Shown here: one piece after another, positions 198 to 12,064 of the stretch | How the letters are laid out: each line of letters starts with the position of its first letter | How positions within the stretch are numbered: the first letter of the stretch is position 1 | Virus record (IMG/VR): IMGVR_UViG_2579778856_000001 | Strand: one strand, 5' to 3' | Origin: a virus | Taxonomy: Duplodnaviria; Heunggongvirae; Uroviricota; Caudoviricetes | DNA: 12,065 nt | Program-made: the position numbers and the translations under genes | The notes under the pieces: generated by a model | The model's database searches: none | The model's input: the letters and a program-made list of their open reading frames with translations, nothing else | What the model was told of the DNA's origin: nothing

Positions 198-395
198 AAT
201 TCTCGTCTGATGGCTACATACGGCGGTCAGTTTACGCTTACGTCCCTTCTGGTCAAAATGGACGAAGAAATGCTCTGCTTCTTCGACAGCAACGGGCGAA
301 CCACCATGCCCCGTAAAGCTTTCTCCCTGCGTACTGGCGTAACCCGCCGCCAGCTGTTTCCAGACGCCATTTACTTCATTGAACGGGAGTTCTGA
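198..395 (+). pseudogene. 3' remnant of an unidentified gene truncated by the IS66-family insertion, translationally coupled to the radC-like gene
   Basis: Track ORF 210-395 stays open back to 198, and the in-frame TAA at 189-191 lies inside the IS end. Codon usage is coding-like (TTC x6, ACC x3, GAC x3, CTG x3). The stop TGA 393-395 sits 1 nt before the radC-like ATG (tgacATG). No own start or RBS, and no family recognised. The antisense ORF 171-449 is the competing reading. Confidence 0.4.
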
Positions 396-396
396 C

Positions 397-849
397 ATGA
401 CCATGTTTACCCAGCGTGAAACCCGTATCCTTGACCAGGCGCGTGACATTATTAGCCGGTACTACCAGCGTGGGGTTCAACTCTGTTCCCCTGATGATGT
501 TCGACGGTGCGTGATGGTTGAGCTGGCACCGCTTGAACATGAAGAGTTTGGCATCATCCTACTCGATAATCATAATCAGCTGCTGCACCGCGAAATCCTG
601 TTCAGGGGTACGCTAAACTCGGTCAGCGTTCACCCCCGTGAAGTTATTAAGCGTGTGCTGAAACATAACGCCGCCGCCGTCATCCTTGTCCATAATCACC
701 CCAGCGGCGAGCCTGAACCCAGCCGGTGTGACATCCAGTTGACCAAAAAGCTTCAGGAGCTGCTGGAAATACTGGATGTGCGGTTACTTGATCACTTTAT
801 CGTGGCAGGAACTGAAACGGTGTCGATGGCTGAGCGAGGACTGGTGTGA
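397..849 (+). CDS. radC: RadC-like JAB-domain protein (DUF2466; YeeS/YkfG/YfjY-type of CP4-like islands)
   Basis: Track ORF 379-849 starts at TTG; ATG 397 is preferred (MTMFTQRETRIL...). Typical RadC-like core: EEFGIILLDNHNQLLHREILFRGTLNSVSVHPREVIKRVLKHNAAAVILVHNHPSGEPEPSRCDIQLTKKL...LDHFIV, including the HNHPSG metalloprotease-like motif. Confidence 0.85.
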   Translation: MTMFTQRETRILDQARDIISRYYQRGVQLCSPDDVRRCVMVELAPLEHEEFGIILLDNHNQLLHREILFRGTLNSVSVHPREVIKRVLKHNAAAVILVHNHPSGEPEPSRCDIQLTKKLQELLEILDVRLLDHFIVAGTETVSMAERGLV

Positions 850-895
850 TGCTGAAAGTTACTTGGTTTAATGTACGTTATTGCGGGTTACGCGC

Positions 896-1825
896 ATGAG
901 CAGGACAGCGTTGCGTCAGGTCGTGCCGGTGGTGCAAACCACCGTGTTCGATGCGTATATTGTCGGTCTGGCCCCCTCGGGACGGCGAGGTATCACCAGC
1001 CTGTTAAACCGCAGCGCCAGCATACTTAAACACGGTGCGGATGCAGCAGACTATCCGTGGGAACAACTTAACTACGCCGCCGTTGCCAAAGTGCGCGCGG
1101 CACTGCTGGATGACGGTTACGCCGTGTCATCGGTCAACATGGCGCTGTCAGCACTCCGGGGCGTAGCGCAGACGGCCTTTAACCTCAATTACATGGATGC
1201 CGAAACGCTGGCACGTATCCGGTCAGTTAAGCGCGTGAGCGGCGATGTCCAGCGCAAGGGAAGGGCGCTGGGCAGGCAGGAAATCCGGGTACTGATTCAG
1301 GCTGCAAAACAGCATCCGCAATCTGTACGGCGCTGTCGCGATGTCGCCATTGTGCTGATGCTTTGCGGAACGGGCCTGCGGGCCGGGGAACTGGTTAAAC
1401 TTGAGCGCCGGGACTATGACAACGGCATCCTGACGGTGAGGCAAGGGAAGGGGCGTAAATACCGTGAAATTCACGTGGCGGATGCGGTGGACAAGGCTAT
1501 TCGTGCGTGGCTGAAAGTTGGCGCAGACGAGGCTGACAGTGCGTTGTTTAGGCGAATTCAGCGCAGTGGTAAGGTCGCAAGCCAACCGCTGACTACGACC
1601 GGGTTAACGGGTATCCTGGCTGAGTTACAGCAAACGGCAGGTATAGCACGTTTTACCCCGCATGATATGCGGCGCACCTTCATCACCCGTTTGCTGGAGC
1701 AGGGCGTGGATATCAATACCGTCCGCCAGTTGGCAGGCCACAGCGACATATCCACGACGACGCGCTATGACTGTCGTGGTGATACTATGAAGATCAGTGC
1801 CAGCAAGCGCATCAGATGTTTTTAG
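896..1825 (+). CDS. Tyrosine site-specific recombinase (XerC/XerD-like phage integrase family)
   Basis: Track ORF 881-1825 (TTG start); ATG 896 gives MSRTALRQ.... The catalytic signature is in the correct order: GTGLRAGEL (Arg), GKGRKYREI (Lys), HDMRRTF (His-x-x-Arg), GHSDISTTTRYD (His ... Tyr nucleophile). An N-terminal SAM-like core-binding segment is present (VSSVNMALSALRGVAQ). Confidence 0.9.
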   Translation: MSRTALRQVVPVVQTTVFDAYIVGLAPSGRRGITSLLNRSASILKHGADAADYPWEQLNYAAVAKVRAALLDDGYAVSSVNMALSALRGVAQTAFNLNYMDAETLARIRSVKRVSGDVQRKGRALGRQEIRVLIQAAKQHPQSVRRCRDVAIVLMLCGTGLRAGELVKLERRDYDNGILTVRQGKGRKYREIHVADAVDKAIRAWLKVGADEADSALFRRIQRSGKVASQPLTTTGLTGILAELQQTAGIARFTPHDMRRTFITRLLEQGVDINTVRQLAGHSDISTTTRYDCRGDTMKISASKRIRCF

Positions 1826-2426
1826 CAGTTGAGGCGTTGCCAGACTCGGTTTCAGTTTCATCTTCAGCACTCAACCGCGCGTACTTTTGATTCTGGATGT
1901 TAATTTGTGCATTGATATTTTCAGGCTGAAGCATCCACGCAACATCCTCACGCGCCCATTCTTTACCGTCAGAGAGTCGTTTTAACCGGGGTTTCCATAT
2001 TCCATACTCATTAAGTTTTTCTGCTACCGAAGCATATTTCTCACGATCTGACTCCCCCGTATGAAGCTTGTCAAAACGACCTTTTACAAGCTGGTAAACA
2101 GTATAGATTTCCAGTGCCTTAGGGGACCTGGCCGGGACTATCATGGGGTGTTCCTCCGGCCTATAAATCCCGTTTGGCTCTCCCTCATTGAGCAGGTCAT
2201 TAAACATGTGGTTCACGCAGGCACTCAGCACATCTGCCGCTTTCTCCGCAGCGAATTTATCCGGGCTAAAACCCGCTCCCGTCAGTTTCCGGGCAATCAG
2301 TGCCAGTTTTTGCCGGGTATCCCGTCCCAGATAAAGCTTCTTCTCCAGAAATTCAAAGACCTCGTTACTGCTTTTCCGTTCCCGGTGGCATCTGGCGTCA
2401 GCCTTGTTGCTTTGGTTACCAATCAT
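1812..2426 (-). CDS. Hypothetical 204-aa protein, divergent from alpA; possible ribbon-helix-helix-type island regulator
   Basis: Track ORF 1812-2438. The second ATG (2426) is preceded by GGAGGT (2431-2436, minus) and is preferred. KKLYLGRDTRQKLALIARKL weakly resembles an RHH strand-helix. Acidic C-terminal tail (SAEDETETES). Its 3' end overlaps the recombinase 3' end by 14 nt. No confident family. Confidence 0.6.
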   Translation of the reverse strand: MIGNQSNKADARCHRERKSSNEVFEFLEKKLYLGRDTRQKLALIARKLTGAGFSPDKFAAEKAADVLSACVNHMFNDLLNEGEPNGIYRPEEHPMIVPARSPKALEIYTVYQLVKGRFDKLHTGESDREKYASVAEKLNEYGIWKPRLKRLSDGKEWAREDVAWMLQPENINAQINIQNQKYARLSAEDETETESGNASTAKNI

Positions 2427-2648
2427 AGTCACCTCCATGACAGTGTTTTGTACAAAATATCACCATTGAGCCTCAGTGAAAATTGCTTCTTTATATGACC
2501 GTTCTGGAGACAGAAATAGATGATCTCGAATGACATCCACATTAAAGATGCCCTTAACGTGCTCAACGAAGGCATCGTTGAGTGAATCCTTGCGTTTTTT
2601 GGTGGTTGTAAATAACCCGCTCCTGAAACAGCTCAAAGGAGCACAAGC

Positions 2649-2846
2649 ATGAACACCAACCGTATTTTGCGTAAAAAAGAGGTACTTCATCTGACGGGGA
2701 ACTCGTCAGCGACGTTGTACCGACTCATCTCGAAAGGATTCTTTCCTTTGTCAAAGAGGCTAACGGGCGACAATGGCCGGGCGGTAGGCTGGCTGGAGAG
2801 TGATATCAATAACTGGGTTAACAGCCGTATGCAGGCGGGAGAATGA
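2649..2846 (+). CDS. alpA: AlpA-family phage/island transcriptional regulator (excisionase-like HTH, MerR superfamily)
   Basis: 65 aa. ILRKKEVLHLTGNSSATLYRLISKGFFPLSKRLTGDNGRAVGWLESDINNWVNSR matches the AlpA signature (LRxKEV...TGxSxSTLYRLI..G.FP.P.KLG.RAVGW.ESEI..W). AAGGAG lies 8 nt upstream of the ATG. Confidence 0.9.
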   Translation: MNTNRILRKKEVLHLTGNSSATLYRLISKGFFPLSKRLTGDNGRAVGWLESDINNWVNSRMQAGE

Positions 2847-2847
2847 A

Positions 2848-3315
2848 ATGAAAGAGATAAAATCGAAAACCAGTTCTGCGAAAAAAACGCTGGTTCCTTG
2901 GTTCGAAACTATGGGGAAACAGGTTGGTTTATCACAAGAAACGATATCAGCAGTGTTAAAGGAGCAGCGTTTACGGATACGTAAGCTTAACTACGCATCT
3001 GCATATACAGTGTCCAATATTCTCATACAGGATTGCGGCGGGGCCGATGACATGTGGAGCAACTACGCTAAACTGGCGCTTATCCTTGAGCGTTGTAAAT
3101 ACATTCCCTGCGGGAGCAGGGCCTGTGCATATTGTTCTACCGCTCAGCAATTACATTATCAGGGGGTGGATGTAACCGGGGAATACGCTTTATATCAGTT
3201 GCCTGAGTTATTTTTAGATTTTTTAGAAACAAACGACAAAAATTCCTCTTATCATTGGGATTACAATAAGTTAGTTGAGCGGCATGAAGATGCTCAGGCG
3301 AGGTCATTCGGGTAA
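2848..3315 (+). CDS. Hypothetical 155-aa protein with an N-terminal HTH-like segment and a Cys cluster
   Basis: Track ORF 2800-3315. The internal ATG 2848 follows the alpA stop (2844-2846) by 1 nt and has GGGAGA 6 nt upstream, so alpA-coupled translation is preferred. MGKQVGLSQETISAVLKEQRL looks like a helix-turn-helix. CKYIPCGSRACAYC is a possible metal site. No family recognised. Confidence 0.65.
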   Translation: MKEIKSKTSSAKKTLVPWFETMGKQVGLSQETISAVLKEQRLRIRKLNYASAYTVSNILIQDCGGADDMWSNYAKLALILERCKYIPCGSRACAYCSTAQQLHYQGVDVTGEYALYQLPELFLDFLETNDKNSSYHWDYNKLVERHEDAQARSFG

Positions 3316-3346
3316 TAGCCATTTCTGTATGGTGAAAAACTGACAT

Positions 3347-3381
3347 ATTACCCTGCCACTGCATTTTGGTGGCAGGGTAAT
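3347..3381. other. Perfect 13-bp stem-loop between the 155-aa and 284-aa genes
   Basis: ATTACCCTGCCAC (3347-3359) pairs with GTGGCAGGGTAAT (3369-3381) around a 9-nt loop. No T-run follows on the plus strand, so it is not a canonical terminator. The arm and loop contain CCACTGCATTTT, which recurs at 4335-4346. Confidence 0.6.
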
Positions 3382-3402
3382 CAATACAGCTAGGAATATT
3401 AA

Positions 3403-4257
3403 ATGAACGATTCTTATTACTTCAGAACATCTGACCCGGATTACATTCGTCACGCACCGTCAATGCTTGAGATTTTAAGTAAAGCATTCCCCACTATTAT
3501 TACCCAGCAGGAAAGTGAGTATGAACTGCAGCGTCTTAACCATTTACTAAATAAACTGAAAGGCAGCAATCGCTGCTACAACATCATTGCTCAAAAACTA
3601 AGGCAGTGCAGAAACGGATCTCCATGCAACAGTCTTATATGCCCGCATTGCCAGCGGGAACGCATTCTGGCGCAACTGGCTATGTTGCATGTCTTGCCGG
3701 GGAATTCAGCAGAATACGTGGGAGTGGTCCTGTTTTTCAACAAGGATACGCAAACTCCGCCGCCATGGAAGAACATTGGGGCGCTCAGGGCGCAAATCGG
3801 TCGTTATAAGCAGAGGATAAGCCGGGTACTTAACCGCCTGGGGTACGCCGGTCCGGCCACAGGCACCTTCAGTATGATGCGACATATGCCTGATGGCCCA
3901 GAAGAGCGTATTTTCTGGGTTCCACAGTTGTGTTTGTTCCTGCCCAATGACAGTACGTTGATTAAGGGGCTAAAAGCGCATATGTCGCGAAGTGGTGGGG
4001 CATTCATTGATGCATCGACGCTTAACACACCAGTGATCGTGCTCAGGTATAAAGATCCCGCGAGACTGATTTCATGCGCCCTGAATCCAGTCTGGCACAC
4101 AGCAGATTACACACTGACTGATAAAGACGCTCTTGTTAAGTCAAGAATGGAGCTACTGAAAGGCCGGACACTGTTAAAAAGTCTGCTTACCCTGGACTCA
4201 CTCGGAACAGGTGTCGTTTCTTTTTCGTTTGGGCAACCCCCAGGGAAAGTGCACTGA
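3403..4257 (+). CDS. Hypothetical 284-aa protein with a C-x5-C-x4-C-P-x-C zinc-ribbon-like motif
   Basis: Track ORF with ATG start and AGGAA 8 nt upstream. The motif QCRNGSPCNSLICPHCQRERILAQ falls at about aa 68-90. It recalls the PCGxCxxCR zinc motif at the N-terminus of some rolling-circle Rep proteins, but no HUH histidines are seen at the expected place (FWVPQLCLFLPN). The function call is therefore open. Confidence 0.7.
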   Translation: MNDSYYFRTSDPDYIRHAPSMLEILSKAFPTIITQQESEYELQRLNHLLNKLKGSNRCYNIIAQKLRQCRNGSPCNSLICPHCQRERILAQLAMLHVLPGNSAEYVGVVLFFNKDTQTPPPWKNIGALRAQIGRYKQRISRVLNRLGYAGPATGTFSMMRHMPDGPEERIFWVPQLCLFLPNDSTLIKGLKAHMSRSGGAFIDASTLNTPVIVLRYKDPARLISCALNPVWHTADYTLTDKDALVKSRMELLKGRTLLKSLLTLDSLGTGVVSFSFGQPPGKVH

Positions 4258-4270
4258 TTTACCGGTAATG

Positions 4271-4401
4271 CAGCAACTGCAATGCACTTTTGCTGTTGAT
4301 TAAATTGCAGTGGAACGACGAATAACAGCGGCAACCACTGCATTTTCGTTGTTGTAAAACTGCAAAGCTTGCCAGTGATTTTGATGGCGCTGATGCACTT
4401 T
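4271..4401. repeat. Iteron/operator-like cluster of ACTGCA(A/T) and ATGCACTTT motifs with two hairpins
   Basis: ACTGCAA at 4276-4282, inverted copy TTGCAGT at 4305-4311, ACTGCAT at 4337-4343, ACTGCAA at 4359-4365. ATGCACTTT at 4282-4290 and 4393-4401. Hairpin CAGCAA/TTGCTG at 4271-4276/4290-4295. Hairpin TGCAGTGG/CCACTGCA at 4306-4313/4335-4342, followed by TTTT. Confidence 0.5.
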
Positions 4402-4439
4402 AACATTCCAACTGTCTCGATTTTAACGCAACCGTCTGT

Positions 4440-4833
4440 TTTCTGCAGGGGCTCACGGATGCCTCTGCACACCCGATCCTTACCATCAACTGACGAGTTA
4501 GCGCATCTGTGAGGGCTTTCTGTGTTTCTGTCAGTGAATATTCTACACACAATGGGGGGAGCGGTCAGCGAGCACCATTGCCATTGAGCGCAACGGAGAG
4601 CTTGGGGACATGCAGCACTACGGAGGCTTCATCTCCTTCTCATGTCATTAAACGATACGGCGAACGAGCGCAGCGAGTGAGGGAAGGCGTCAGCCTGAAC
4701 AGGGGGAAAGATTTGCGACCGGAGTGGAGCAAATCATGGGCGGAGCCCATCCTCGCGACTGGGGTTTTGACTTTCGAATTGCCCAGCGTTGAGTTTGGTT
4801 AATGTAGTGAGACGAGGATGCTGAGAGGGGACC
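4440..4833 (+). other. ORF-poor, more GC-rich leader upstream of the polymerase-like gene; candidate structured RNA or 5' UTR
   Basis: Only alternative-start or antisense ORFs with implausible composition cover it. Local hairpins: TGCAGGGGC/GCCTCTGCA (4444-4452/4461-4469, one G-U pair) and ATGGGC-gga-GCCCAT (4736-4750). Micro-tandems: TTTCTGTG/TTTCTGTC (4517-4532) and CCATTG x2 (4575-4586). Direct repeats GAGCGCA, CAGCGAG and GCGACYGG. No known RNA family recognised. Confidence 0.3.
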
Positions 4834-6231
4834 GTGAGTACTGAAAAGGATTATCCAGTGAAGATCCCTAAGTGGGTTTATGACCGTATTACTGAAATAA
4901 CGGATTATGTCGTGGGGGATACGCAATGGGCTGTTACCCGGCGGCAGACAGTACGGTGGTTCCTGGCTCACATATGGCTGGAAACAGACGATGATGGCTG
5001 GACTATATGCACTGTCCGGGATATCCGTAGCAGCTATGCCAGTCTCCTGGGACAGTGTGAAATTAGTTACCAGGGGGAGTGCTTTATGTCCACGCTAACT
5101 GATTTCCTGCCGACACTTTCGGATATTGAATTTCGTGCAGGAAAAGCGAGCAAAGACCCGGAAAAGCGTAGAGCCAGTGCATGGCGGTTCAACCCCCTGC
5201 TGCCTGTGTGTGATGAGTCTGCCAGGGGTAAGTTAAATCTGGTTGACTTGGATACTGGTGAGTCTGTTAGTTTTAGAGCTCTGCTTCAGGGGAACGGGAA
5301 AGCTCCTGGGCATGCGATAGATGTAGAGAAACGCCAGACGGCCCTAAAACAAACGGAAAAGGACTTCTTGGCCAAAGTTGGGCGGGGGCGCATGAGTATA
5401 CAGTTTGTGAAGGAATTGCGTAGCCGTGAGCCGGATCACTATTACCGCGCAGGAATACGCAGCCTTAACCATCTCTACAATGGCAGGATTGAGGGACAAT
5501 ATGTCACTTACGACCATCATTATCGTCTGACGTTTGGAGGGCGGTATTATGATCAAGCTTTCCAGAATCTGCCCAATGAGTTCAAAGCTAAATTTCGGAC
5601 CGGGTTACTCAACTATGACATCGAAGCGTGCAATCTGGCCTGTCTGAACCATCTGTTCAGACAGTATGACGTCGATTATCGTGTGAAGTCATCGATATAT
5701 AAAACCATGATGGAACATACCGGGCTGACCCGTAAACAGTGCAAACAGATGGTCCATACCACCACCTACAGAATTGGGCGTGTGACTATTGGTGTTAATG
5801 ATGGCCTTGGGGCAAAAGTGTATGGATGGTGCGGTAACAGCAAAAAAAAGGCGCTAAAGATTTTGCGTTGGTGGAACCGTTATATCAGTCCATTGAAATC
5901 TGCGCTTGAGTCATTGCTGGAACGTGTGCATGGCGCACACCGCAAGAGTTGTTCATCACCGCGTAACTATCACAGGTACGCTAATGAAGTCGGATTAATA
6001 CTGGATCTTAATAGTGAGGTGTATCAGCGTGAAAAGACTCACCATCATCAATATGCGCGGAATAAGGCACTGTTGGCGTTTATGATCTGTGGTGTGGAGC
6101 AGGCGTATATCCGTGAGGTTGTCAGTATGAACCCTGGTCGTGTCTGCATGCTGGATCATGATGGGGTAGTGGCAACGGGCGCGCTTTCACTACCGGACTG
6201 GCGTGGTTTCACGATGAAAGTGAAGGACTAG
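4834..6231 (+). CDS. Compact family-A DNA polymerase-like protein (palm/fingers motifs present, no exonuclease domain); putative island replication polymerase/primase
   Basis: GTG start directly after an in-frame TGA (4822-4824), with GAGGGG at 4825-4830. Ordered PolA motifs: TFGGRYYDQAFQNLP (aa 233-247, compare TGRLSSxxPNLQNIP); LLNYDIEACNLACLNHL (aa 258-274, compare DYSQIELRxxAHL, motif A); RKQCKQMVHTTTYRIG (aa 300-315, exact R-x3-K-x7-Y O-helix spacing, motif B); VCMLDHDGVVA (aa 437-447, compare QVHDE, motif C). Inter-motif spacings resemble those of Pol I. Confidence 0.75.
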   Translation: MSTEKDYPVKIPKWVYDRITEITDYVVGDTQWAVTRRQTVRWFLAHIWLETDDDGWTICTVRDIRSSYASLLGQCEISYQGECFMSTLTDFLPTLSDIEFRAGKASKDPEKRRASAWRFNPLLPVCDESARGKLNLVDLDTGESVSFRALLQGNGKAPGHAIDVEKRQTALKQTEKDFLAKVGRGRMSIQFVKELRSREPDHYYRAGIRSLNHLYNGRIEGQYVTYDHHYRLTFGGRYYDQAFQNLPNEFKAKFRTGLLNYDIEACNLACLNHLFRQYDVDYRVKSSIYKTMMEHTGLTRKQCKQMVHTTTYRIGRVTIGVNDGLGAKVYGWCGNSKKKALKILRWWNRYISPLKSALESLLERVHGAHRKSCSSPRNYHRYANEVGLILDLNSEVYQREKTHHHQYARNKALLAFMICGVEQAYIREVVSMNPGRVCMLDHDGVVATGALSLPDWRGFTMKVKD

Positions 6232-6297
6232 CTTACTTTCTTGAATTTAACTATCTGCGATCTCTGATAAGGGCGTATTACGTTGTCAATCATAATG

Positions 6298-6328
6298 GGA
6301 TATGCGCATTGGAACGATGTGCATATCC
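6298..6328. other. 12-bp stem-loop between the polymerase-like gene and the IS30-type inverted repeat
   Basis: GGATATGCGCAT (6298-6309) pairs with ATGTGCATATCC (6317-6328), with one G-T position and a 7-nt loop. No flanking T-run on either strand. Confidence 0.5.
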
Positions 6329-6355
6329 AGTAAGTGATCCATGTCCGCTTTGAGC

Positions 6356-7045
6356 TGTGAGTTCAACGGGTCGATGCAACGCTGTCCCTAATCAAGGGGG
6401 ACGTTGCCATGAAACGAAGAACTCGTATTAACTACACGCCAGAGCAAAAGGTGATTATTTGGGACAGATATAAGCAAGGTGATTCCCTGCATGATATCCC
6501 CCAGAATGTTCGACAGATTTCACTCTACTATCATGCCTACAATCCACCAGGCCGGTGGCTACCGTCCTCCCGTGCGAAAGCGGCACCGGTTAGCGTTTTC
6601 GCTTGATGAAAAAGAGGAGATATCCAGAGGACTGGTAGCAAAACGCATCATCAGGGACATCGCTGCTAAATTATCAATAGCTCCCTCAACGATTAGCCGC
6701 GAGATCAGGAGGCACGGCGGTGCAAAACAATACCGTGCAGCAAAAGCCGATCCTGCTGCGTGGGAAAATGCTCTGAGACCAAAACCTTGCAAGCTAATTG
6801 AAAGCCCCACATTGTGTAAAATCATTGCAGAGAAGATGCATCAGGACTGGTCGCCGGAACAAATTGGCGGTTGGCTAAAACGCTGTTATCCCGATAATCA
6901 GGAAATGCATGTGTCACATGAAATGATTTATAAAACGCTTTTTATACCAACCCGGGGAGCTTTAAAAAAAGAGCTGCAGCAATGCCTCAGAAGCGGAAGA
7001 GTAGTGCGTAGATCCAAAACCTCATCACTTAAAGTAAACAGAGAT
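6356..7045 (+). mobile_element. IS30-family insertion sequence remnant: left inverted repeat plus a 5' portion of the transposase gene; right part deleted
   Basis: TGTGAGTTCAACGGGTCGATGCAACGCTG (6356-6384) resembles, from memory, the IS30 IRL (TGTAGATTCAATTGGTCAACGCAACAG). It is followed by an IS30-type transposase N-terminus. No DDE catalytic domain and no right IR occur before the next gene. Confidence 0.65.
6409..7045 (+). pseudogene. IS30-family transposase pseudogene (frameshifted and 3'-truncated)
   Basis: Two track ORFs (6409-6606 and 6479-7090) join into one IS30-like N-terminus, MKRRTRINYTPEQKVIIWDRYKQGDSLHDI / (P)RMFDRFHSTI...STISREIRRHGG...WSPEQIGGWLK...HVSHEMIYKTLF...LRSGRVVRRSKTSSLK, if one C is removed from the C5 run at 6498-6502. 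Similarity ends near aa R188 of the second ORF (about 7042), before the DDE domain. Confidence 0.75.
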
Positions 7046-7227
7046 ACATTCTGGTCACGAATGCCCGGTTGTTCGTGCTTTGCGTTTTAATCGCATTTTA
7101 CAGTTTCTGCCTGCGTGCAGAGGTTGATGGTATTTTCTGAAAAAGCGGCTCGCTTTGCTAATGCATATGGCACAAATACAACAGTTTGTGTCATTCTGAC
7201 CCATCTTTATACCGCGACGGTGGAAAC

Positions 7228-9798
7228 ATGGATGAGCTGCTAACCCTTGGCTGCATTGCTTTATTCTTCGCACTGGTGGTGGTTCCCATCCTCGCGATTA
7301 TCGCGCTCAGCCGCAGCACGGCTGTTCGTTCTGAGCTGGCGACCCTGCGTCGCCGGGTGGAGGTGCTTGAGCAGCGCGGTGTGACTGAAGCACCCGCCAC
7401 AGTGGTAACAACTGTGCCGCAGAGTGTTTCGCAGATGGTTGTGCCTGTTGAAACGTCTTCGCCTGCGGTTAACATCGTGCTGTCGGAGCCTGTGGCTGAT
7501 GTCACGCCTGAGTCCGTTGACCCCTGGCGTCCACAACCGAAGCCGCAAAACGAGGCGCTACCCACACCAGCGGTCGAACAATCTTCCGCTTTTGGTGGGG
7601 TGATGTCGTCCCTGGTGCGCTGGTTTATGCAGGGCAACCCGCTGGCAAAGCTGGGTATTCTGCTTCTCTTCCTTGGCTTCTCCTTCCTGCTGCGTTATAC
7701 GGTTGAACACTCCCTGTTCCCGCTTGAGCTACGTCTGGTGGCGACTTCGCTGTTTGCGATTGCCCTGCTGGTAGTGGGCTGGCGATTGCGGCATAAACAG
7801 CTGGTTTATGCGCTGATCATACAGGGTGGAGCTACGGGGACGCTCTATCTCACCGTTTTTGGCGCATTCTGGCTCTGGCAGATGCTGCCGATGACGCTGG
7901 CGTTTGCATTACTGGTGGCGATTTGCGCGGCGAGCGTGGGACTGGCGATTATGCAAAAAGCGCTCAGCCTCGCGATGCTGGCAAGTATCGGTGGCTATCT
8001 GGCACCGCTGTTGCTTTCCACCGGCGGCGGTAGTCATGTGGCGCTCTTCTCTTTCTACCTTCTGCTTTCCGTCGGTATTCTCGCCATCAGCATCTGGCAA
8101 CACTGGCGCGAGCTTAATCTGCTTGGCCTGTTATTTACCTTTGGTATCGGCGGTCTTTGGGGACTCGACGGCTATCGATCAGAGTATTACCTGAGCAGTC
8201 AGCTTTTCCTGATAGCCAATACGATCATTTTTGGTGTGCTGAGCGTGGCGCTATCGCTACGAGCACAGGAGAAAGGTAAGCAGATTATTGATGGCGTGCT
8301 GTTGTTTGCATCGCCGCTGGTCGGTTTTGGCATGCAGTACGCCATAACCCGGCATATGGAATATGGTCCGGCGCTTAGCGCGCTGGGTTACGGCGGTTTC
8401 TATCTGGCGTTAGCATGGCTTGCATTGCGTCGCTATCCCTCTTTGGGGAGGCCGCTGGTGCTGGCGGCGCTGGCGCTGGGTGGGGCATTTACCACGCTCG
8501 CTATCCCACTGGCGCTTTCGGCCCGCTGGACGGCGATGGCCTGGGCGCTGGAAGGTCTCGGCATCCTCTGGCTGGGCGTGCAACAGCAGCAGCGGCGTAT
8601 GAGCTATAGCGGCACTGCGCTGCTGGTGCTGGCAGTGTGCAGCGCGCTGTGGGCGCAGATGAACGGGATGAGCGCGCTTTCTCTGGTGCTAATCTTTGCC
8701 GTACTCAGCCTCAGCTGGCTGGCTGCCGCCTGGCTGTGGCGCAATATTCAGTTGCAGGGTAGTTGGGTTCTGTTGGCTGGCGGTTTGATCTTCTGGATAA
8801 TCGCGCTCATTGGGGCATCGCAACTGGTGCTGAAAAAGGACTCGCTGGTGCTGTCTGGCGTGCTGGCGTTAATGGCGATATCGGTCTGGGGCTGGCGGAT
8901 TGTCTCTGGTCGTCTGGCCTGGTGGGAGCTGGATGTCAGCAAATGGTTGCTGTGGCCGACGATGCTGGTGATGCTGCTGTCTCAAATTTCACAACATGAG
9001 ATTTTTGCTGCGGGCTGGCAGAATCTGGCCTGGTGTCTGGCGTTACCCGCTGCGGGGGCATTGCTCTGGCGTGATGCTGAGACGTTGCCGCCGCGCCTCT
9101 CCAGACTGGCGCACCTTTCACTCTTCTGGATGATTCTGCTCGCGCTGGCGGCGGAGCTATTCTGGTTTGCGCAAGATCTGCCATGGGGCATGGCGGCGTG
9201 GGGCTCCGGCCTGATGATGGCCGCGGGGGGCCTGCTCATCTTTCTCGTTCATGAGGCGGTTCATCGTCAGCTATGGCCATTCCGAAGCTGGCCCGCACTC
9301 TACGCTTCTCAGGCGATGATACCGGTAGCTGCGGTATTGGTTGTTCTGCTAGTACTGACGAATTTGCAGGATGGCGTAGTTTATCGCCAGACCTGGCTGC
9401 CGCTGGTGAATCCACTGGAGGAGGGGGCCGCTTTTGCGCTACTGGGACTCATTGTATTTTATCGCGTTTCGCAGCGCTTTTTCCCGGTGCAGATTTCGGT
9501 ATGCCGTCCCTGGCCGCTCATTGCACTGCTGGCGCTTAGCTTCTGGTGGCTGAATGGCATCCTGCTGCGCGCATTGGCCTGGTACGGCGAAGTGCCCTGG
9601 AGCGCGGAAACACTGTGGCATTCGCGGCTGATTCAGACCTGTTTTGCCCTGTTCTGGATGCTGGCGGCATTAGTGGTGATGCTACGTGCGACCCGGCGTT
9701 GCTCACGTCGCGAATGGCTTTGTGGATCCGTATTGTTAGGGATTGTTATTGTGAAACTGATGTTGGTAGACAGTGCGCGTGGCGGCGGCCTGGCATGA
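7228..9798 (+). CDS. DUF2339-type polytopic inner-membrane protein (856 aa), apparently lacking its natural C-terminus
   Basis: Track ORF 7186-9798 (TTG start). ATG 7228 with GGTGGA upstream gives MDELLTLGCIALFFALVVVPILAIIAL. The layout is one TM, then a coiled LATLRRRVEVLEQRG segment, then a Pro/Val-rich linker, then more than 20 hydrophobic helices. This is the architecture I recall for DUF2339. It ends ...KLMLVDSARGGGLA, and the TGA stop is supplied at the sequence-character break (9796). Confidence 0.8.
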   Translation: MDELLTLGCIALFFALVVVPILAIIALSRSTAVRSELATLRRRVEVLEQRGVTEAPATVVTTVPQSVSQMVVPVETSSPAVNIVLSEPVADVTPESVDPWRPQPKPQNEALPTPAVEQSSAFGGVMSSLVRWFMQGNPLAKLGILLLFLGFSFLLRYTVEHSLFPLELRLVATSLFAIALLVVGWRLRHKQLVYALIIQGGATGTLYLTVFGAFWLWQMLPMTLAFALLVAICAASVGLAIMQKALSLAMLASIGGYLAPLLLSTGGGSHVALFSFYLLLSVGILAISIWQHWRELNLLGLLFTFGIGGLWGLDGYRSEYYLSSQLFLIANTIIFGVLSVALSLRAQEKGKQIIDGVLLFASPLVGFGMQYAITRHMEYGPALSALGYGGFYLALAWLALRRYPSLGRPLVLAALALGGAFTTLAIPLALSARWTAMAWALEGLGILWLGVQQQQRRMSYSGTALLVLAVCSALWAQMNGMSALSLVLIFAVLSLSWLAAAWLWRNIQLQGSWVLLAGGLIFWIIALIGASQLVLKKDSLVLSGVLALMAISVWGWRIVSGRLAWWELDVSKWLLWPTMLVMLLSQISQHEIFAAGWQNLAWCLALPAAGALLWRDAETLPPRLSRLAHLSLFWMILLALAAELFWFAQDLPWGMAAWGSGLMMAAGGLLIFLVHEAVHRQLWPFRSWPALYASQAMIPVAAVLVVLLVLTNLQDGVVYRQTWLPLVNPLEEGAAFALLGLIVFYRVSQRFFPVQISVCRPWPLIALLALSFWWLNGILLRALAWYGEVPWSAETLWHSRLIQTCFALFWMLAALVVMLRATRRCSRREWLCGSVLLGIVIVKLMLVDSARGGGLA

Positions 9799-10156: not shown

Positions 10157-10789
10157 TCATTCATCGTTCGTTGCACGAACGCGCCTGATCTCCACTCTGG
10201 CAATCTGATCTGCTGGAATATAGGTTGCCAGAGCTCCCCAGTACTTATCAACCACGCCTTTATACTCTTCCCATTCGTTACTGCCTGAAGGGCTGCTGTG
10301 CGTGACGTAAAGAACCATATCGCCTTTATTCCCCAGGGTAAACGGACCGTTAGGCCACTCTTCAAAGTTCCCTGGCAGCCGTGACATCATACCGGAACCA
10401 TCGCGAAGAATCACTCTGACCTCGGTAACGCTGAAGCCTGTTTGATCAAACATTGCCTGCCATGCTGAGCTGGTATCGTCAGACCATGAAATATCATTAT
10501 TCCACAGTAATCTGTACATCCATTTGCGACCGTACCTGCGCCACCACGCACCGCATGTAAGGGCACACAGAAGTGCTGGTGGTGTTGCCAGCCAGGCATT
10601 CAGACCTGCCCACATAACAGCCTGGTAAGCCATCATTGCTGTCAGGCCAAAAATCAGCGAAGAAAAAGTCACCTCAATGGGCTTGTGGTGATCCTTCAGT
10701 CCCACATTCGCAATAAAATACCCAATATAGCCACTGGTCAGGGTCACCAGTGTTGCCCATGGCAGATTTAACAACGAAACGTCAAACAT
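10157..10789 (-). CDS. 210-aa membrane protein: three N-terminal TM helices plus a soluble C-terminal domain of about 110 aa (prophage cargo, unknown function)
   Basis: Track ORF 10157-10867. Its first 26 codons span the mor terminator, so ATG 10789 with AGGGAGAA upstream is preferred (MFDVSLLNLPWATLVTLTSGYIGYFIANVGL...). TM helices: LPWATLVTLTSGYIGYFIANVGL, VTFSSLIFGLTAMMAYQAVMWAGL, AWLATPPALLCALTCGAWW followed by RRYGRK. The C-terminal domain is W/E/D-rich. No family recognised. Confidence 0.7.
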   Translation of the reverse strand: MFDVSLLNLPWATLVTLTSGYIGYFIANVGLKDHHKPIEVTFSSLIFGLTAMMAYQAVMWAGLNAWLATPPALLCALTCGAWWRRYGRKWMYRLLWNNDISWSDDTSSAWQAMFDQTGFSVTEVRVILRDGSGMMSRLPGNFEEWPNGPFTLGNKGDMVLYVTHSSPSGSNEWEEYKGVVDKYWGALATYIPADQIARVEIRRVRATNDE

Positions 10790-10827
10790 ATTTTCTCCCT
10801 GCATCCTGAATACTAAAGAGAGAGCAT

Positions 10828-10861
10828 AAAAAAAGCACGGTAAGGGGTCTACCGTGCTTTT
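10828..10861 (-). terminator. Rho-independent terminator downstream of mor (bidirectional geometry, stronger on the minus strand)
   Basis: Stem GCACGGTA (10835-10842) pairs with TACCGTGC (10850-10857) around the loop AGGGGTC. It is flanked by A7 (10828-10834) and T4 (10858-10861). Read on the minus strand, the hairpin is followed by TTTTTTT. Confidence 0.8.
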
Positions 10862-10903
10862 ATACAATAAGGAGATTTTTGAAAGGACTTTAACAAGCAG
10901 GAA

Positions 10904-11302
10904 TTATCTGGATTTGTTAACGTCTTTCGTCTCCTCTGGCAGATCTTCATCAAACAACCTGCCCTGCATCCGATCCAGTTCTTCTTTTCTGACCCGCTTA
11001 ACCACGCTGTAGACCCACTGAAGCGAAACACCAAACTTGCGGGCCAGTTCGTGGTGGTTGCGTCCGTTAAACTCCCTGAAGATTTCCCGGTCGCGCTGAC
11101 TGACCTTCCATACCATGCCCATCGGGAAATAAACGTTTTGCCCGCCCCAGACCTGCATCATTCGGTTCGCGACGGCCTGACCAATCTGGTCGGCAACTTC
11201 GGGCTCAATATCAATAATCTCGCGAACGGTCTCAGAGGTATGCTGTGCCAGTTCCACCAGGAGTTCCGGCCCCTTACTTCGAAACTGATTCAGGTCGCTC
11301 AT
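10904..11302 (-). CDS. mor: Mor-family middle-operon transcriptional activator (Mu gp17-like)
   Basis: 132 aa with GGGAG upstream. The central GGQNVYFPMG...REIFREFNGRNHHELARKFGVSLQWVYSVVKRVRK parallels Mu Mor (GGGQVYIPRG...IWNDFNGRNVSELTTRYGVTFNTVYKAIRRMRR). Located immediately downstream of gemA, as in Mu. Confidence 0.85.
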   Translation of the reverse strand: MSDLNQFRSKGPELLVELAQHTSETVREIIDIEPEVADQIGQAVANRMMQVWGGQNVYFPMGMVWKVSQRDREIFREFNGRNHHELARKFGVSLQWVYSVVKRVRKEELDRMQGRLFDEDLPEETKDVNKSR

Positions 11303-11726
11303 GTTTGACTCCCGCAGCTCTGCGCTGCCACTTCTTCAGTTTCTCAATAACACTGCTTGCCTGTTCAGTACTGAGCCAGCGCAGGGCGCTGATGCCCGTT
11401 TCCCGCTTGATCCACCGCGCTAATGCATTTTCTGAACGGTCACGAACAATGCCGGCAGCAGCCATTTCAAGCCATAGCGCACGGATTTTCCTGGACTGCG
11501 GATGGTTATCCAGCGGTAAACCGGAGCTGGCTTTTCCGGCAGGCTTAACGCGAAAGCCTTTCCTTTTCATGGATTCCAGCACGCAGTTTAGTTGTGTGGT
11601 ATCCATTCCTTTGGTTGAGGCTTTACCGGTCAGCCCCTGTAACATCTGGCGGTAGGTGTCTTCATCCATACCCAGTTCATTACGGGCAATATGAATGAGC
11701 TGGATAAGACGTTGTTTAGTCATCAT
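11274..11726 (-). CDS. gemA: GemA-like regulatory protein (Mu gp16, DUF1018)
   Basis: Track ORF 11274-11765. ATG 11726 has AAGGAG 5 nt upstream (MMTKQRLIQLIHIARNELGMDEDTYRQML...). IHIAxxxLGxDxDTYRxxL...RKIRALW...ALxRWIKRETGISALRWL is the DUF1018/GemA pattern. It overlaps the mor start by 29 nt. Confidence 0.8.
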   Translation of the reverse strand: MMTKQRLIQLIHIARNELGMDEDTYRQMLQGLTGKASTKGMDTTQLNCVLESMKRKGFRVKPAGKASSGLPLDNHPQSRKIRALWLEMAAAGIVRDRSENALARWIKRETGISALRWLSTEQASSVIEKLKKWQRRAAGVKHERPESVSK

Positions 11727-11931
11727 CGTTGCTCCTTTTACCTGCGCCACCGATATAATCGACATATAAAGGAAGCGCCACAGGCCAGCACAGGAACATC
11801 ACCGACCAGCTAATCCAGTAGCCAGCACCACTGTAACGTGAATAAAACCCTGAACGGCGGTGCAGTTCAGCAGTACACCAACCGACAAAACAATACCAGA
11901 ACAGGGCACATACAACAGATTCAGCCGTCAT
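11716..11931 (-). CDS. Small 71-aa two-TM membrane protein of the Mu-like early region
   Basis: Track ORF 11716-12045 (GTG start). The internal ATG 11931 is preferred because a better-looking upstream gene in another frame ends at 11921. MTAESVVCALFWYCFVGWCTAEL...YWISWSVMFLCWPVALPLYV gives two hydrophobic helices. Its stop overlaps the gemA start (ATGATGACTAA). Confidence 0.5.
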   Translation of the reverse strand: MTAESVVCALFWYCFVGWCTAELHRRSGFYSRYSGAGYWISWSVMFLCWPVALPLYVDYIGGAGKRSNDDD

Positions 11932-12064
11932 TCTGAATATCCCCCCAACTGATATGAATATTACGGGCAGCAATGACAGGGTCGTTATTCCACCATGCAC
12001 CTGACATGTATTTTTCAACCTGTTCGCGTCCGGCAATAACACCAATTGTGATCCCCGGCCTGAC
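11921..12064 (-). CDS. C-terminal 47 codons of an unidentified Mu-like early-region protein (5' part beyond the right edge)
   Basis: Not in the track. The minus frame from 12064 reads VRPGITIGVIAGREQVEKYMSGAWWNNDPVIAARNIHISWGDIQNDG then TGA (11921-11923). This overlaps the ATG of the next gene by 11 nt, a typical phage operon overlap. Globular-looking composition. Confidence 0.45.
   Translation of the reverse strand, partial: VRPGITIGVIAGREQVEKYMSGAWWNNDPVIAARNIHISWGDIQNDG

Follow-up and report, generated by a model that had tools for sequence, protein, structure and literature searches.

Transposons and viruses are predicted to encode a divergent clade of minimal A-family-like polymerases, the TV-Pols (Iyer, Abhiman and Aravind 2008, Biol Direct 3:39; PMC2579912). 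The type was predicted in 2008 to be a minimal, ancestral-like form of the Pol I/T7 RNAP superfamily whose members act as primase-polymerases, and the clade was noted beside lambda-type integrases in integration hotspots (PMC2579912). The TV-Pol core occurs without any fused or linked nuclease domain; it has an absolutely conserved Arg in a β-hairpin before the palm and a thumb built as a two-helix antiparallel coiled coil, and an all-helical N-terminal domain (TV-PolN) is found in a subset of TV-Pols only (PMC2579912). CcPol sits with the Cch2 helicase and serine recombinases in SCCmec and needs an adjacent OB-fold protein, MP (Bebel et al. 2020, PMC7581432); primases of the CcPol type have been reported only from Bacillota (Rice 2023, PMC10061031). 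CcPol lies near canonical Pol I, nearest of all to the CHEAP subfamily, and keeps three exonuclease helices as well as the E710 and F762 equivalents. To our knowledge, this atypical, Pol I-like enzyme is the only TV-Pol-type polymerase ever to have been tested.

The window (the whole stretch of 12,065 nucleotides that was analysed) carries on its plus strand, at 4834..6231, a gene for a 465-aa product identified as a minimal family-A-like polymerase of TV-Pol type from its ORF, its homologs and fold and profile evidence; a GTG at 4858 is a possible alternative to the GTG start at 4834. The initial annotation had read this ORF as a family-A polymerase homolog, and the reading is borne out: in structure comparison the model of the 465-aa protein significantly matches the palm/fingers fold of family A, the relationship is also matched at the profile level, and the catalytic residues are conserved. 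The two results named beforehand as grounds for rejecting it, namely the lack of a fold or profile match and unconserved catalytic residues, were looked for and neither was seen. The Pfam family DNA_pol_A (PF00476), which had been proposed as part of the same check, was not matched by the query, by 10 distant relatives or by any of the 23 members of set A2; the polymerase of phage DS1, used as the positive control, matched at 1.1e-58. The family HMM scores MAP_030 of Microcystis phage Ma-LMM01 at 49 bits (E=2e-17, a single comparison), and in hhalign the family against MAP_030 reaches 96.1% (P=3e-9) across 189 aligned columns; Ma-LMM01 is a named TV-Pol carrier, and MAP_030, which adjoins two transposases, is presumably the TV-Pol ORF of the 2008 paper. 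The N-terminus of MAP_030 is unrelated to that of the 465-aa protein, the latter being α+β and winged-helix-like. By profile the 465-aa protein belongs to the TV-Pol clade, a kind with precedent, which had been seen next to lambda-type integrases before.

Searches of Pfam, PHROGs, NCBIfam and PADLOC returned nothing for the 465-aa protein; its 78 homologs are all unnamed, and a Pfam domain was found in none of the 78. PDB sequences gave no match with phmmer or with a narrow family profile, and a broad family profile gave sub-threshold matches only, 14 of the 18 being to PolA. Searched with the query by tblastn, the phage collection had no match and the plasmid collection yielded two large E. 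coli replicons only; the scan of genome contigs gave 7 loci only, and a homolog search with the broad alignment the close clade alone. Neither Pfam nor NCBIfam detects a TOPRIM, AEP primase or SF3/DnaB-type helicase domain in the protein, and homology to YfjI or YfjH of K-12 was considered and rejected (hhalign probability for YfjI, 0.35%).

The polymerase begins with a winged-helix-like N-terminal domain (~residues 10-120; 4861..5193, plus strand) that is best explained as clade-specific and may be a sequence-specific DNA-binding module. A linker follows (~residues 121-215; 5194..5478, plus strand) that is possibly the thumb region in a low-confidence model; pLDDT is 38-73 across residues 121-215, and helices are predicted at 147-153, 166-181 and 201-211 in an arrangement that is unreliable. 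The palm/fingers catalytic domain (~residues 216-465; 5479..6228, plus strand) holds a β-hairpin with R237 and Q244, and a motif-6-like G420/E422. The lack of 3'-5' and 5'-3' exonuclease domains and the ~200 unrelated N-terminal residues had been described correctly in the initial annotation: Pfam finds no exonuclease domain in the 465-aa protein, and the N-terminus is the winged-helix-like region. One phage-borne member of the family adjoins a separate 5'-3' exonuclease gene. The best explanation of the 465-aa protein is a TV-Pol-type member of the family-A superfamily, a minimal polymerase that has neither a proofreading nor a 5'-nuclease domain.

The palm/fingers core carries what looks like a complete complement of residues for binding metal and for contacting nucleotide or primer. 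D262 of motif A and D443 of motif C, which had been proposed as catalytic, are invariant in 58 sequences; in the predicted structure a strand ends at D262, and a β-turn holds H442-D443. R237 is invariant as well, and the modelled strands flank it in a β-hairpin before the palm. Helix 300-312, the O-helix spanning R300-K304-Y312, is confidently modelled; of this proposed motif B the Lys held up, as K304 is invariant, and the other two positions are less conserved than had been implied, with Y or F at position 312 in 91% of sequences and R300-x3-K304 invariant in the query (enterobacterial) clade, while the wider family keeps the Lys universally and the Arg not. When located by ungapped motif spacing, the E710 position (D262+5) is N, H or Q and the F762 position (K304+4) is H, I or L; the hhalign residue alignment to Klenow near motif A was unreliable and was left out of the residue mapping.

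The enzyme resembles the described TV-Pols in its minimal core of 400-600 aa without a nuclease, the hairpin Arg, the two catalytic Asp residues and the fingers RxxxK, as well as in a variable extra N-terminal domain and a mobile-element context (integrase, resolvase, transposase or helicase). It differs in that the enterobacterial clade, the winged-helix N-terminus, the position in an AlpA operon and the upstream motif and leader are not described in that work (PMC2579912), and in that the Arg of RxxxK is retained only in the enterobacterial clade. The analogy to CcPol drawn in the initial annotation is apt, since in both cases a core gene of the integrative island encodes an A-family domain without proofreading; a further likeness, an operon with a Cch-type (DUF927) helicase, is found in the S. 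fonticola sister island only. Unlike CcPol, the 465-aa protein is missed by Pfam DNA_pol_A, lacks both sugar-discriminating residues (as judged by motif spacing), has a winged-helix N-terminus and is enterobacterial; a tyrosine recombinase gene lies in its neighbourhood, and next to it there is neither a helicase nor a recognisable SSB. Canonical family-A enzymes (Pol I/Klenow, Taq, T7 gp5, Pol theta) share ~11-14% identity with the 465-aa protein, which has no Pfam match; it differs from them in an HDG rather than HDE motif C, the absence of exonuclease domains and of E710 and F762 equivalents (again by motif spacing), a short or uncertain thumb and its unrelated N-terminal residues. The likeness to piPolB of pipolins is conceptual, that of an integrative element whose self-priming replicase is a polymerase-family enzyme.

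The AlpA/tyrosine-recombinase island context had been recognised correctly and is seen across related loci. Upstream backbone genes on the plus strand are a RadC-like JAB protein (379-849; Pfam RadC 6.7e-46) and a XerC-type tyrosine integrase (881-1825; Pfam Phage_integrase 1.4e-31); their order (379..1825) is repeated in Klebsiella and Salmonella loci. A 208-aa ORF on the minus strand (1812..2438), divergent from alpA, has no Pfam domain and belongs, in diverged form, to a ~220-aa family (BLASTP E 1e-6 to 1e-12 against the counterparts in L002, L008, L020, L022 and L023); members of this family occur with AlpA and the polymerase in every locus, and the 208-aa ORF is possibly an island regulator. 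The AlpA-family regulator/excisionase (2649..2846, plus strand; Pfam Phage_AlpA 2.6e-12) comes first in the rightward gene set and the polymerase gene last, and AlpA lies upstream of the polymerase in all enterobacterial loci. Between them on the plus strand are a 155-aa ORF of the AlpA operon (2848..3315; 171 aa from GTG 2800; a 155-aa hypothetical protein in RefSeq) and a 284-aa ORF (3403..4257) with a conserved C-x6-C-x4-C-x2-C cluster, neither of which has a family match. The 284-aa ORF is a frequent companion between AlpA and replication-type genes, with 42% identity to a 285-aa ORF of L004 and homology to a 300-aa ORF of L022 and to a 263-aa ORF of L042, the latter preceding a Cch-like helicase; it was rejected as an obligate partner of the polymerase, being missing in L002, L020 and L023 and unrelated to the 381-aa ORF of Klebsiella. 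At and after its 3' end is a cluster of short AAAnTGCA/TGCAnTTT repeats in both orientations (4245..4370), which are limited to loci with the 284-aa ORF family and are possibly protein-binding sites. The downstream neighbour of the polymerase gene is an IS30 remnant. The slot filled by the polymerase is shared with P4 alpha, PICI Pri-Rep and CP4-57 YfjI (integrase, divergent ORF, alpA, then a ~460-550-aa protein), yet the 465-aa protein is not homologous to these and lacks their TOPRIM, AEP or helicase domains.

Intact copies of the polymerase gene are present in ~11% of complete E. coli genomes, those of the pandemic ST131 lineage among them. An IS disrupts it in at least one ST131 strain with no obvious consequence; the gene was not taken to be a pseudogene in ST131, as the ISEc52 disruption is strain-specific.

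A previously undescribed conserved DNA element precedes the gene. The invariant motif ATATTCTACACACAAT-GGGGGGAGC (4538..4562, plus strand) is a candidate promoter or initiation/origin site; its consensus runs from an AT-rich stretch through CTACACAYWAT to GGGGGGAGC, and it occurs once per island, on the same strand and 185-360 nt before the start codon, in every close-clade locus. The gene follows in 11 of 13 metagenome matches of the motif, and there were zero exact matches in 2.9 million viral contigs; a decoy promoter for infecting T7-like phages is unsupported, given the lack of viral-contig matches and a weak T7 matrix score. Alignments show a conserved non-coding leader from the motif to the gene (4554..4790, plus strand) with highly conserved 5' and 3' blocks, repeated AGCGAG and a hypervariable middle; distant family members have no leader. 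RNAalifold predicts local hairpins only (two, with some covariation; 7 of 27 pairs compensatory), Rfam has no match at E<=1, and a large structured leader RNA was rejected for now on the grounds of the short hairpins and a covariation term of -1.3 kcal/mol. A small leader protein (97-aa ORF, 4509-4802) was likewise rejected, there being no conserved frame and no codon-phase bias. The search for origin signatures turned up no standout iteron family or tandem repeats, no DnaA boxes and no AT-rich unwinding element.

The polymerase gene belongs to the backbone of an integrative island under AlpA control, and we consider it moderately likely that its product starts the replication of that island. 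Following induction of the AlpA operon and excision of the island, the N-terminal domain would target the enzyme to a cis element, probably the motif and leader upstream of its own gene; a first strand would be made there, either by de novo priming or by extension of a transcript, and the host replisome would then take over. Several observations count against the polymerase as a replication starter: CcPol alone cannot prime and needs its SSB-like MP; the window contains no helicase, no evident SSB-like partner and no origin signature, and the ST131 island has no helicase either; the Arg of RxxxK is unconserved outside the enterobacterial clade, and a distant member beside Gabija is cargo-like; the thumb is not confidently modelled; and there is the IS disruption in the ST131 strain.

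A defence or counter-defence enzyme that makes nucleic acid on infection, for example in a retron-like manner from the leader or with neighbouring defence genes, is unlikely. The islands, which carry retrons, Gabija, R-M, SIR2 and CBASS-type cargo from one member of the Enterobacterales to another, are packed with defence systems, a conserved non-coding element lies before the gene, and both residues that exclude rNTPs in Pol I and CcPol are absent as located by motif spacing, all of which would suit such an enzyme, as would the distant member lying 87 bp downstream of GajA-GajB. That member looks like cargo in its island, which already has AlpA and an AEP primase. The polymerase gene, however, stays constant across loci while the defence cargo differs, and because of this it is considered a backbone gene and not cargo; the defence option raised in the initial annotation is not favoured for the same reason. 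PADLOC does not match the protein, the evidence for RNA structure in the leader is weak and distant members lack the leader, and in the S. fonticola sister island (L042) the family member shares an operon with the Cch-type replicative helicase.

It is unlikely that the polymerase makes up, with the motif and leader, an initiation module that is self-contained and needs no helicase. The winged helix would dock on CTACACAYWAT-GGGGGGAGC, and the enzyme, lacking the rNTP-excluding residues, would begin synthesis either de novo at the G-run, in the manner of a miniature T7-type RNAP/primase, or by extension of a G-rich R-loop transcript; the latter has precedent in ColE1 and mitochondrial replication.

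An accessory polymerase for repair or gap filling during integration, excision or entry of ssDNA, for instance together with RadC, and not an initiator, is improbable. RadC and DUF2787 are backbone genes typically seen in elements whose DNA enters the cell single-stranded, CcPol without its partner only extends primers, and the missing helicase, SSB and origin signature would fit this role too; against it, the contexts of TV-Pol and CcPol point to priming alongside helicases, Pol I is already available from the host, and the conserved cis element, like the specific N-terminal domain, hints that the enzyme acts at a particular site. A promoter-specific RNA polymerase or primase, that is, a minimal enzyme like a single-subunit RNAP that starts at the G-run of the motif, is quite improbable; the motif layout recalls T7-group promoters, but the protein did not display the features of T7-like single-subunit RNAPs that were looked for (as promoter-recognition elements the specificity loop, the AT-rich recognition loop and the N-terminal domain, and RNAPs as the nearest fold). 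That the protein is a remnant without catalytic activity, serving in structure or regulation, is highly improbable: some PolA-like ORFs of Bacillota elements lack catalytic residues (PMC10061031) and the gene tolerates IS disruption, but the metal-binding and substrate-contacting residues are all invariant across ~20% identity and the ORF is intact in most of ~580 E. coli genomes.

The 465-aa polymerase provides a genetically tractable member of the TV-Pol type, and the upstream element is a concrete candidate substrate for it. Pfam, NCBIfam, PHROGs and PADLOC all miss the family, and a profile of its own would therefore annotate a recurrent "hypothetical protein". If the polymerase replicates the island, this would explain how defence islands without a helicase or primase are amplified or transferred, and would offer a simple system for primer-free initiation by an A-family active site. 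If the self-contained initiation module proved true, it would be the first site-specific A-superfamily primase-polymerase from a Gram-negative bacterium and a present-day representative of the ancestor that has been proposed for both Pol I and T7 RNAP.

The polymerase ORF (4834-6231, + strand) has a GTG start and encodes 465 aa; the peptides quoted from it in the initial annotation are found at their reported places, and the GTG at 4858 is a possible true start, since most homologs begin at MKIPKW. Single-sequence and narrow-profile searches with the 465-aa protein give no match in Pfam (including DNA_pol_A), PHROGs, NCBIfam, PADLOC or PDB sequences. None of the 78 close homologs has a name or a Pfam domain; they come from the Enterobacterales (Escherichia, Salmonella, Citrobacter, Yersinia, Serratia, Pectobacterium, Raoultella and Klebsiella). 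An exhaustive profile search over 1.84 billion representatives yields 70 relatives, in the majority of which similarity is confined to the C-terminal ~240 aa at ~20-25% identity. The profile of this wider family aligns with the Klenow polymerase domain (hhalign 85.5%, P=5.7e-6) and with the polymerase of Cellulosimicrobium phage DS1 (93.5%, P=2.3e-7), itself a bona fide member of Pfam DNA_pol_A (1.1e-58) that one family member matches by plain tblastn (E=1e-4); family-A polymerases make up 14 of the 18 weak matches of the broad profile to PDB sequences.

The residues agree with the profiles. Among 58 sequences no variation is seen at R237, Q244, D262, K304, G420, E422, H442, D443 or G444, while Y or F stands at position 312 in 91% of them; as a consensus the family has sGRLYa.g.slQN.P / YDh..CH / AK.....hhYGA / LAHhhQGhE / LLQHDGF. 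In the HMM alignment GGR...QNLP falls on TGRLSS..PNLQNIP of Klenow (R668, Q677), and K304...Y312 on K758...Y766. The catalytic assignments proposed initially hold for D262, K304 and D443; Y312 varies within the close clade and R300, like D441, is specific to the enterobacterial clade. That the protein is a family-A polymerase homolog is supported with high confidence at three independent levels, as first proposed from the sequence, although canonical Pfam DNA_pol_A detects no member of the family.

The architecture of the protein is that of TV-Pol, a group of minimal A-superfamily polymerases of 400-600 aa from transposons and viruses (Iyer, Abhiman and Aravind 2008; PMC2579912). TV-Pols share an invariant hairpin Arg, two Asp and RxxxK, and never have an attached nuclease; some carry an extra N-terminal domain and are neighbours of lambda-type integrases at integration hotspots (PMC2579912). 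A carrier named in that study is Microcystis phage Ma-LMM01, whose putative TV-Pol, the 506-aa ORF MAP_030, adjoins two transposase genes and has no match in a Pfam search. MAP_030 scores 49 bits against the family HMM (E=2e-17, in a single comparison) and aligns with the family profile over 189 columns (hhalign 96.1%, P=3e-9), sharing NYD..CH, Q.iE and QHDG; the family matches it better than any canonical Pol I. The 465-aa protein has an A-superfamily core with an intact active site and belongs to a TV-Pol-type family; judged by these alignments it is a new enterobacterial member of a computationally defined, almost untested kind, not a new kind. Both what the initial annotation observed and how it read the protein are supported. 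The gene is real, widespread (ST131) and unannotated; it is less unprecedented than first thought, TV-Pol having been predicted in 2008.

The AlpA/integrase island setting described in the initial annotation recurs across loci from Providencia, Serratia, Klebsiella, Salmonella and metagenomes, as a module that runs from a ~220-aa ORF divergent from alpA through alpA itself, zero to two ORFs and a gap of 350-670 bp to the polymerase gene. It is preceded by RadC, an integrase and DUF2787, and the variable downstream cargo includes Gabija, type I R-M, AAA_15, SIR2, CDI toxin and CBASS-like genes. A Klebsiella polymerase of only ~22% identity occupies the same module, which makes the gene island backbone rather than cargo. 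K-12 CP4-57 has the same layout (intA, divergent yfjH, alpA, yfjI) with the slot filled by a non-homologous DUF3987 protein. Family members also occur in other settings, among them a minimal Polynucleobacter element (HTH repressor, two small ORFs, polymerase and integrase) and an 83-kb phage-like contig; on the latter P0087 (7132-11599 of locus L010) has as neighbours a 5'-3' exonuclease, a DHH-family protein, ThyX, PhoH and Acb1, and may be the replicative or priming polymerase of its phage. In ST131 E. coli the region sits in a large island flanked by dhaR and ychF, with a P4-type integrase adjoining ychF, and containing retron Ec67, ABC-three-component genes, DUF2787, RadC and an internal XerC-type integrase; the retron Ec67-type RT/endonuclease and the ABC-three-component system (2099-7630 of the ST131 locus L001) underline the defensive nature of this module-hosting island. 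In the window a frameshifted IS30-family transposase remnant (6409-7090) lies directly downstream of the polymerase gene and marks the end of the conserved module. Farther on, at 10157-12045 (- strand), are Mu-like phage genes: a Mor-type late activator, a GemA-like protein and phrog_12870. They are 88-96% identical to Escherichia phage PhiKM and Klebsiella phage KP12; since in the ST131 reference island DUF2339 is followed by DUF3999 instead, the window's genome carries a Mu-like insertion or remnant that begins near 9.8-10.1 kb.

The 208-aa ORF (1812-2438, - strand) belongs, as a diverged member, to the ~220-aa family, which lacks a Pfam domain, accompanies AlpA in every related island, including one with a Cch-like helicase, and is a candidate island regulator. 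A search with the ~220-aa protein leads to that island, in Serratia fonticola, which holds, in this order, AlpA, a 263-aa ORF, a DUF927 protein matching the NCBIfam 'SCCmec Cch1 replicative helicase' (4.4e-13) and a family member (91 bits, E=1.9e-29); this sister island links the module to a helicase and mirrors the polymerase-helicase partnership of SCCmec. The 284-aa ORF of the window (3403-4257), which has a conserved C-x6-C-x4-C-x2-C cluster at residues 69-83, is homologous to the 263-aa ORF (E=3e-24); in several islands a homolog follows AlpA and precedes the polymerase, in S. fonticola it precedes the Cch-like helicase, and the product may be a zinc-binding accessory factor.

The 575-bp 'gap' before the polymerase gene (4258-4833) is not neutral. 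In every close-clade locus an AT-rich stretch and then CTACACAYWAT-GGGGGGAGC occur once, on the same strand as the gene and 185-360 nt before its start codon (4538-4562 in the window), invariant between loci whose proteins share only 45-60% identity. A relaxed form occurs 13 times in 241 million metagenome records, with a polymerase gene within ~290-350 nt after it in 11 (one of the others is truncated, one unrelated); it is not found in 2.9 million viral contigs or in distant family members. This cis element (motif and leader, 4538-4790) was previously unnoticed, and the clade-specific motif co-occurs with a clade-specific, DNA-binding-like N-terminal domain of the polymerase. In 'type 1' loci near-identical blocks follow the motif (GGGGGGAGCGnnCAGCGAGC..CCATTGCCATTGAGC; CGAACGAGCGnAGCGAGTGAG; ATTTGCGAC..GCAAAT) and flank a hypervariable insert, while the encoded proteins are just 54-61% identical; 'type 2' loci have the motif alone in common. 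Leader conservation is non-coding, and a leader-encoded small protein was rejected, as none of the frames is maintained and changes fall evenly on the codon phases. Rfam returns no match for the leader and RNAalifold gives only short hairpins with few compensatory pairs, so that a large structured RNA is weakly supported; recognition of its primary sequence by a protein seems likelier. At least six AAAnTGCA/TGCAnTTT repeats in both orientations (4245-4370, at the 3' end of the 284-aa ORF) occur only in loci with that ORF family and may be operator or binding sites. Inside the leader, at 4751-4773 and ~60 nt ahead of the start codon, lies a terminator-like hairpin with a T-run after it (CCTCGCGACTGGGG TTTTGACTTT); this is confined to leaders of the type seen in the window and in loci L013, L029 and L031, and could be an attenuator.

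We consider it somewhat more probable than the opposite that the enzyme starts replication of the excised island. It would initiate at the conserved element as a primase-polymerase, or extend a leader transcript, after which the host replisome would take over; DnaA boxes and iteron arrays were sought in the window and not found. The relative on which experiments have been done, CcPol of SCCmec, is closest to the canonical CHEAP subfamily (PMC10201439) and has Cch2 as its helicase partner (PMC7581432); reports of PolA-SSB pairs are so far from Bacillota only (PMC10061031). CcPol keeps the ribonucleotide-excluding equivalents of E710 and F762; the present family appears to have N, H or Q at the first of these positions and H, I or L at the second, as counted without gaps from the invariant Asp and Lys in a segment where hhalign is unreliable. 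Against a replication-starting role, CcPol primes with dNTPs only in complex with the OB-fold protein MP (PMC7581432), whereas no SSB or helicase partner is recognisable in the window. A further weakness is that a distant member, P0112 (6420-11410 of locus L011), starts 87 bp past GajB of a GajA-GajB (Gabija) pair, in an island that also has AlpA and an AEP primase; P0112 may represent a distinct, defence-associated use of the same core, and a defence-type nucleic-acid synthase is for the window's enzyme an unlikely reading, the gene being backbone in AlpA-controlled islands. Accessory gap filling has a slimmer chance. A promoter-specific RNA polymerase or RNA primase is slightly less credible again. 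The motif's layout loosely resembles T7-group promoters, and scored against a matrix derived from the 17 annotated promoters of T7 it comes third among 24,086 window positions (15/23 consensus matches). Its score is 7.6, where real promoters reach 26-39, and two unrelated sites rank above it. A T7-like promoter is a weak lead; the motif can be read just as well as a sigma-70 -10 box with a GC-rich discriminator. A dead remnant is highly improbable: 591 of 5,426 complete E. coli genomes carry gene and leader, the gene mostly intact, and the ISEc52 within the ORF of ST131 strain MB1341 (L001 17392-18561) is strain-specific, most other carriers having an intact ORF. In several carriers ISEc52 lies elsewhere, in the AlpA operon region.

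The polymerase family is unannotated in every profile library tried, and the conserved cis element makes the mechanism proposed for it directly testable.
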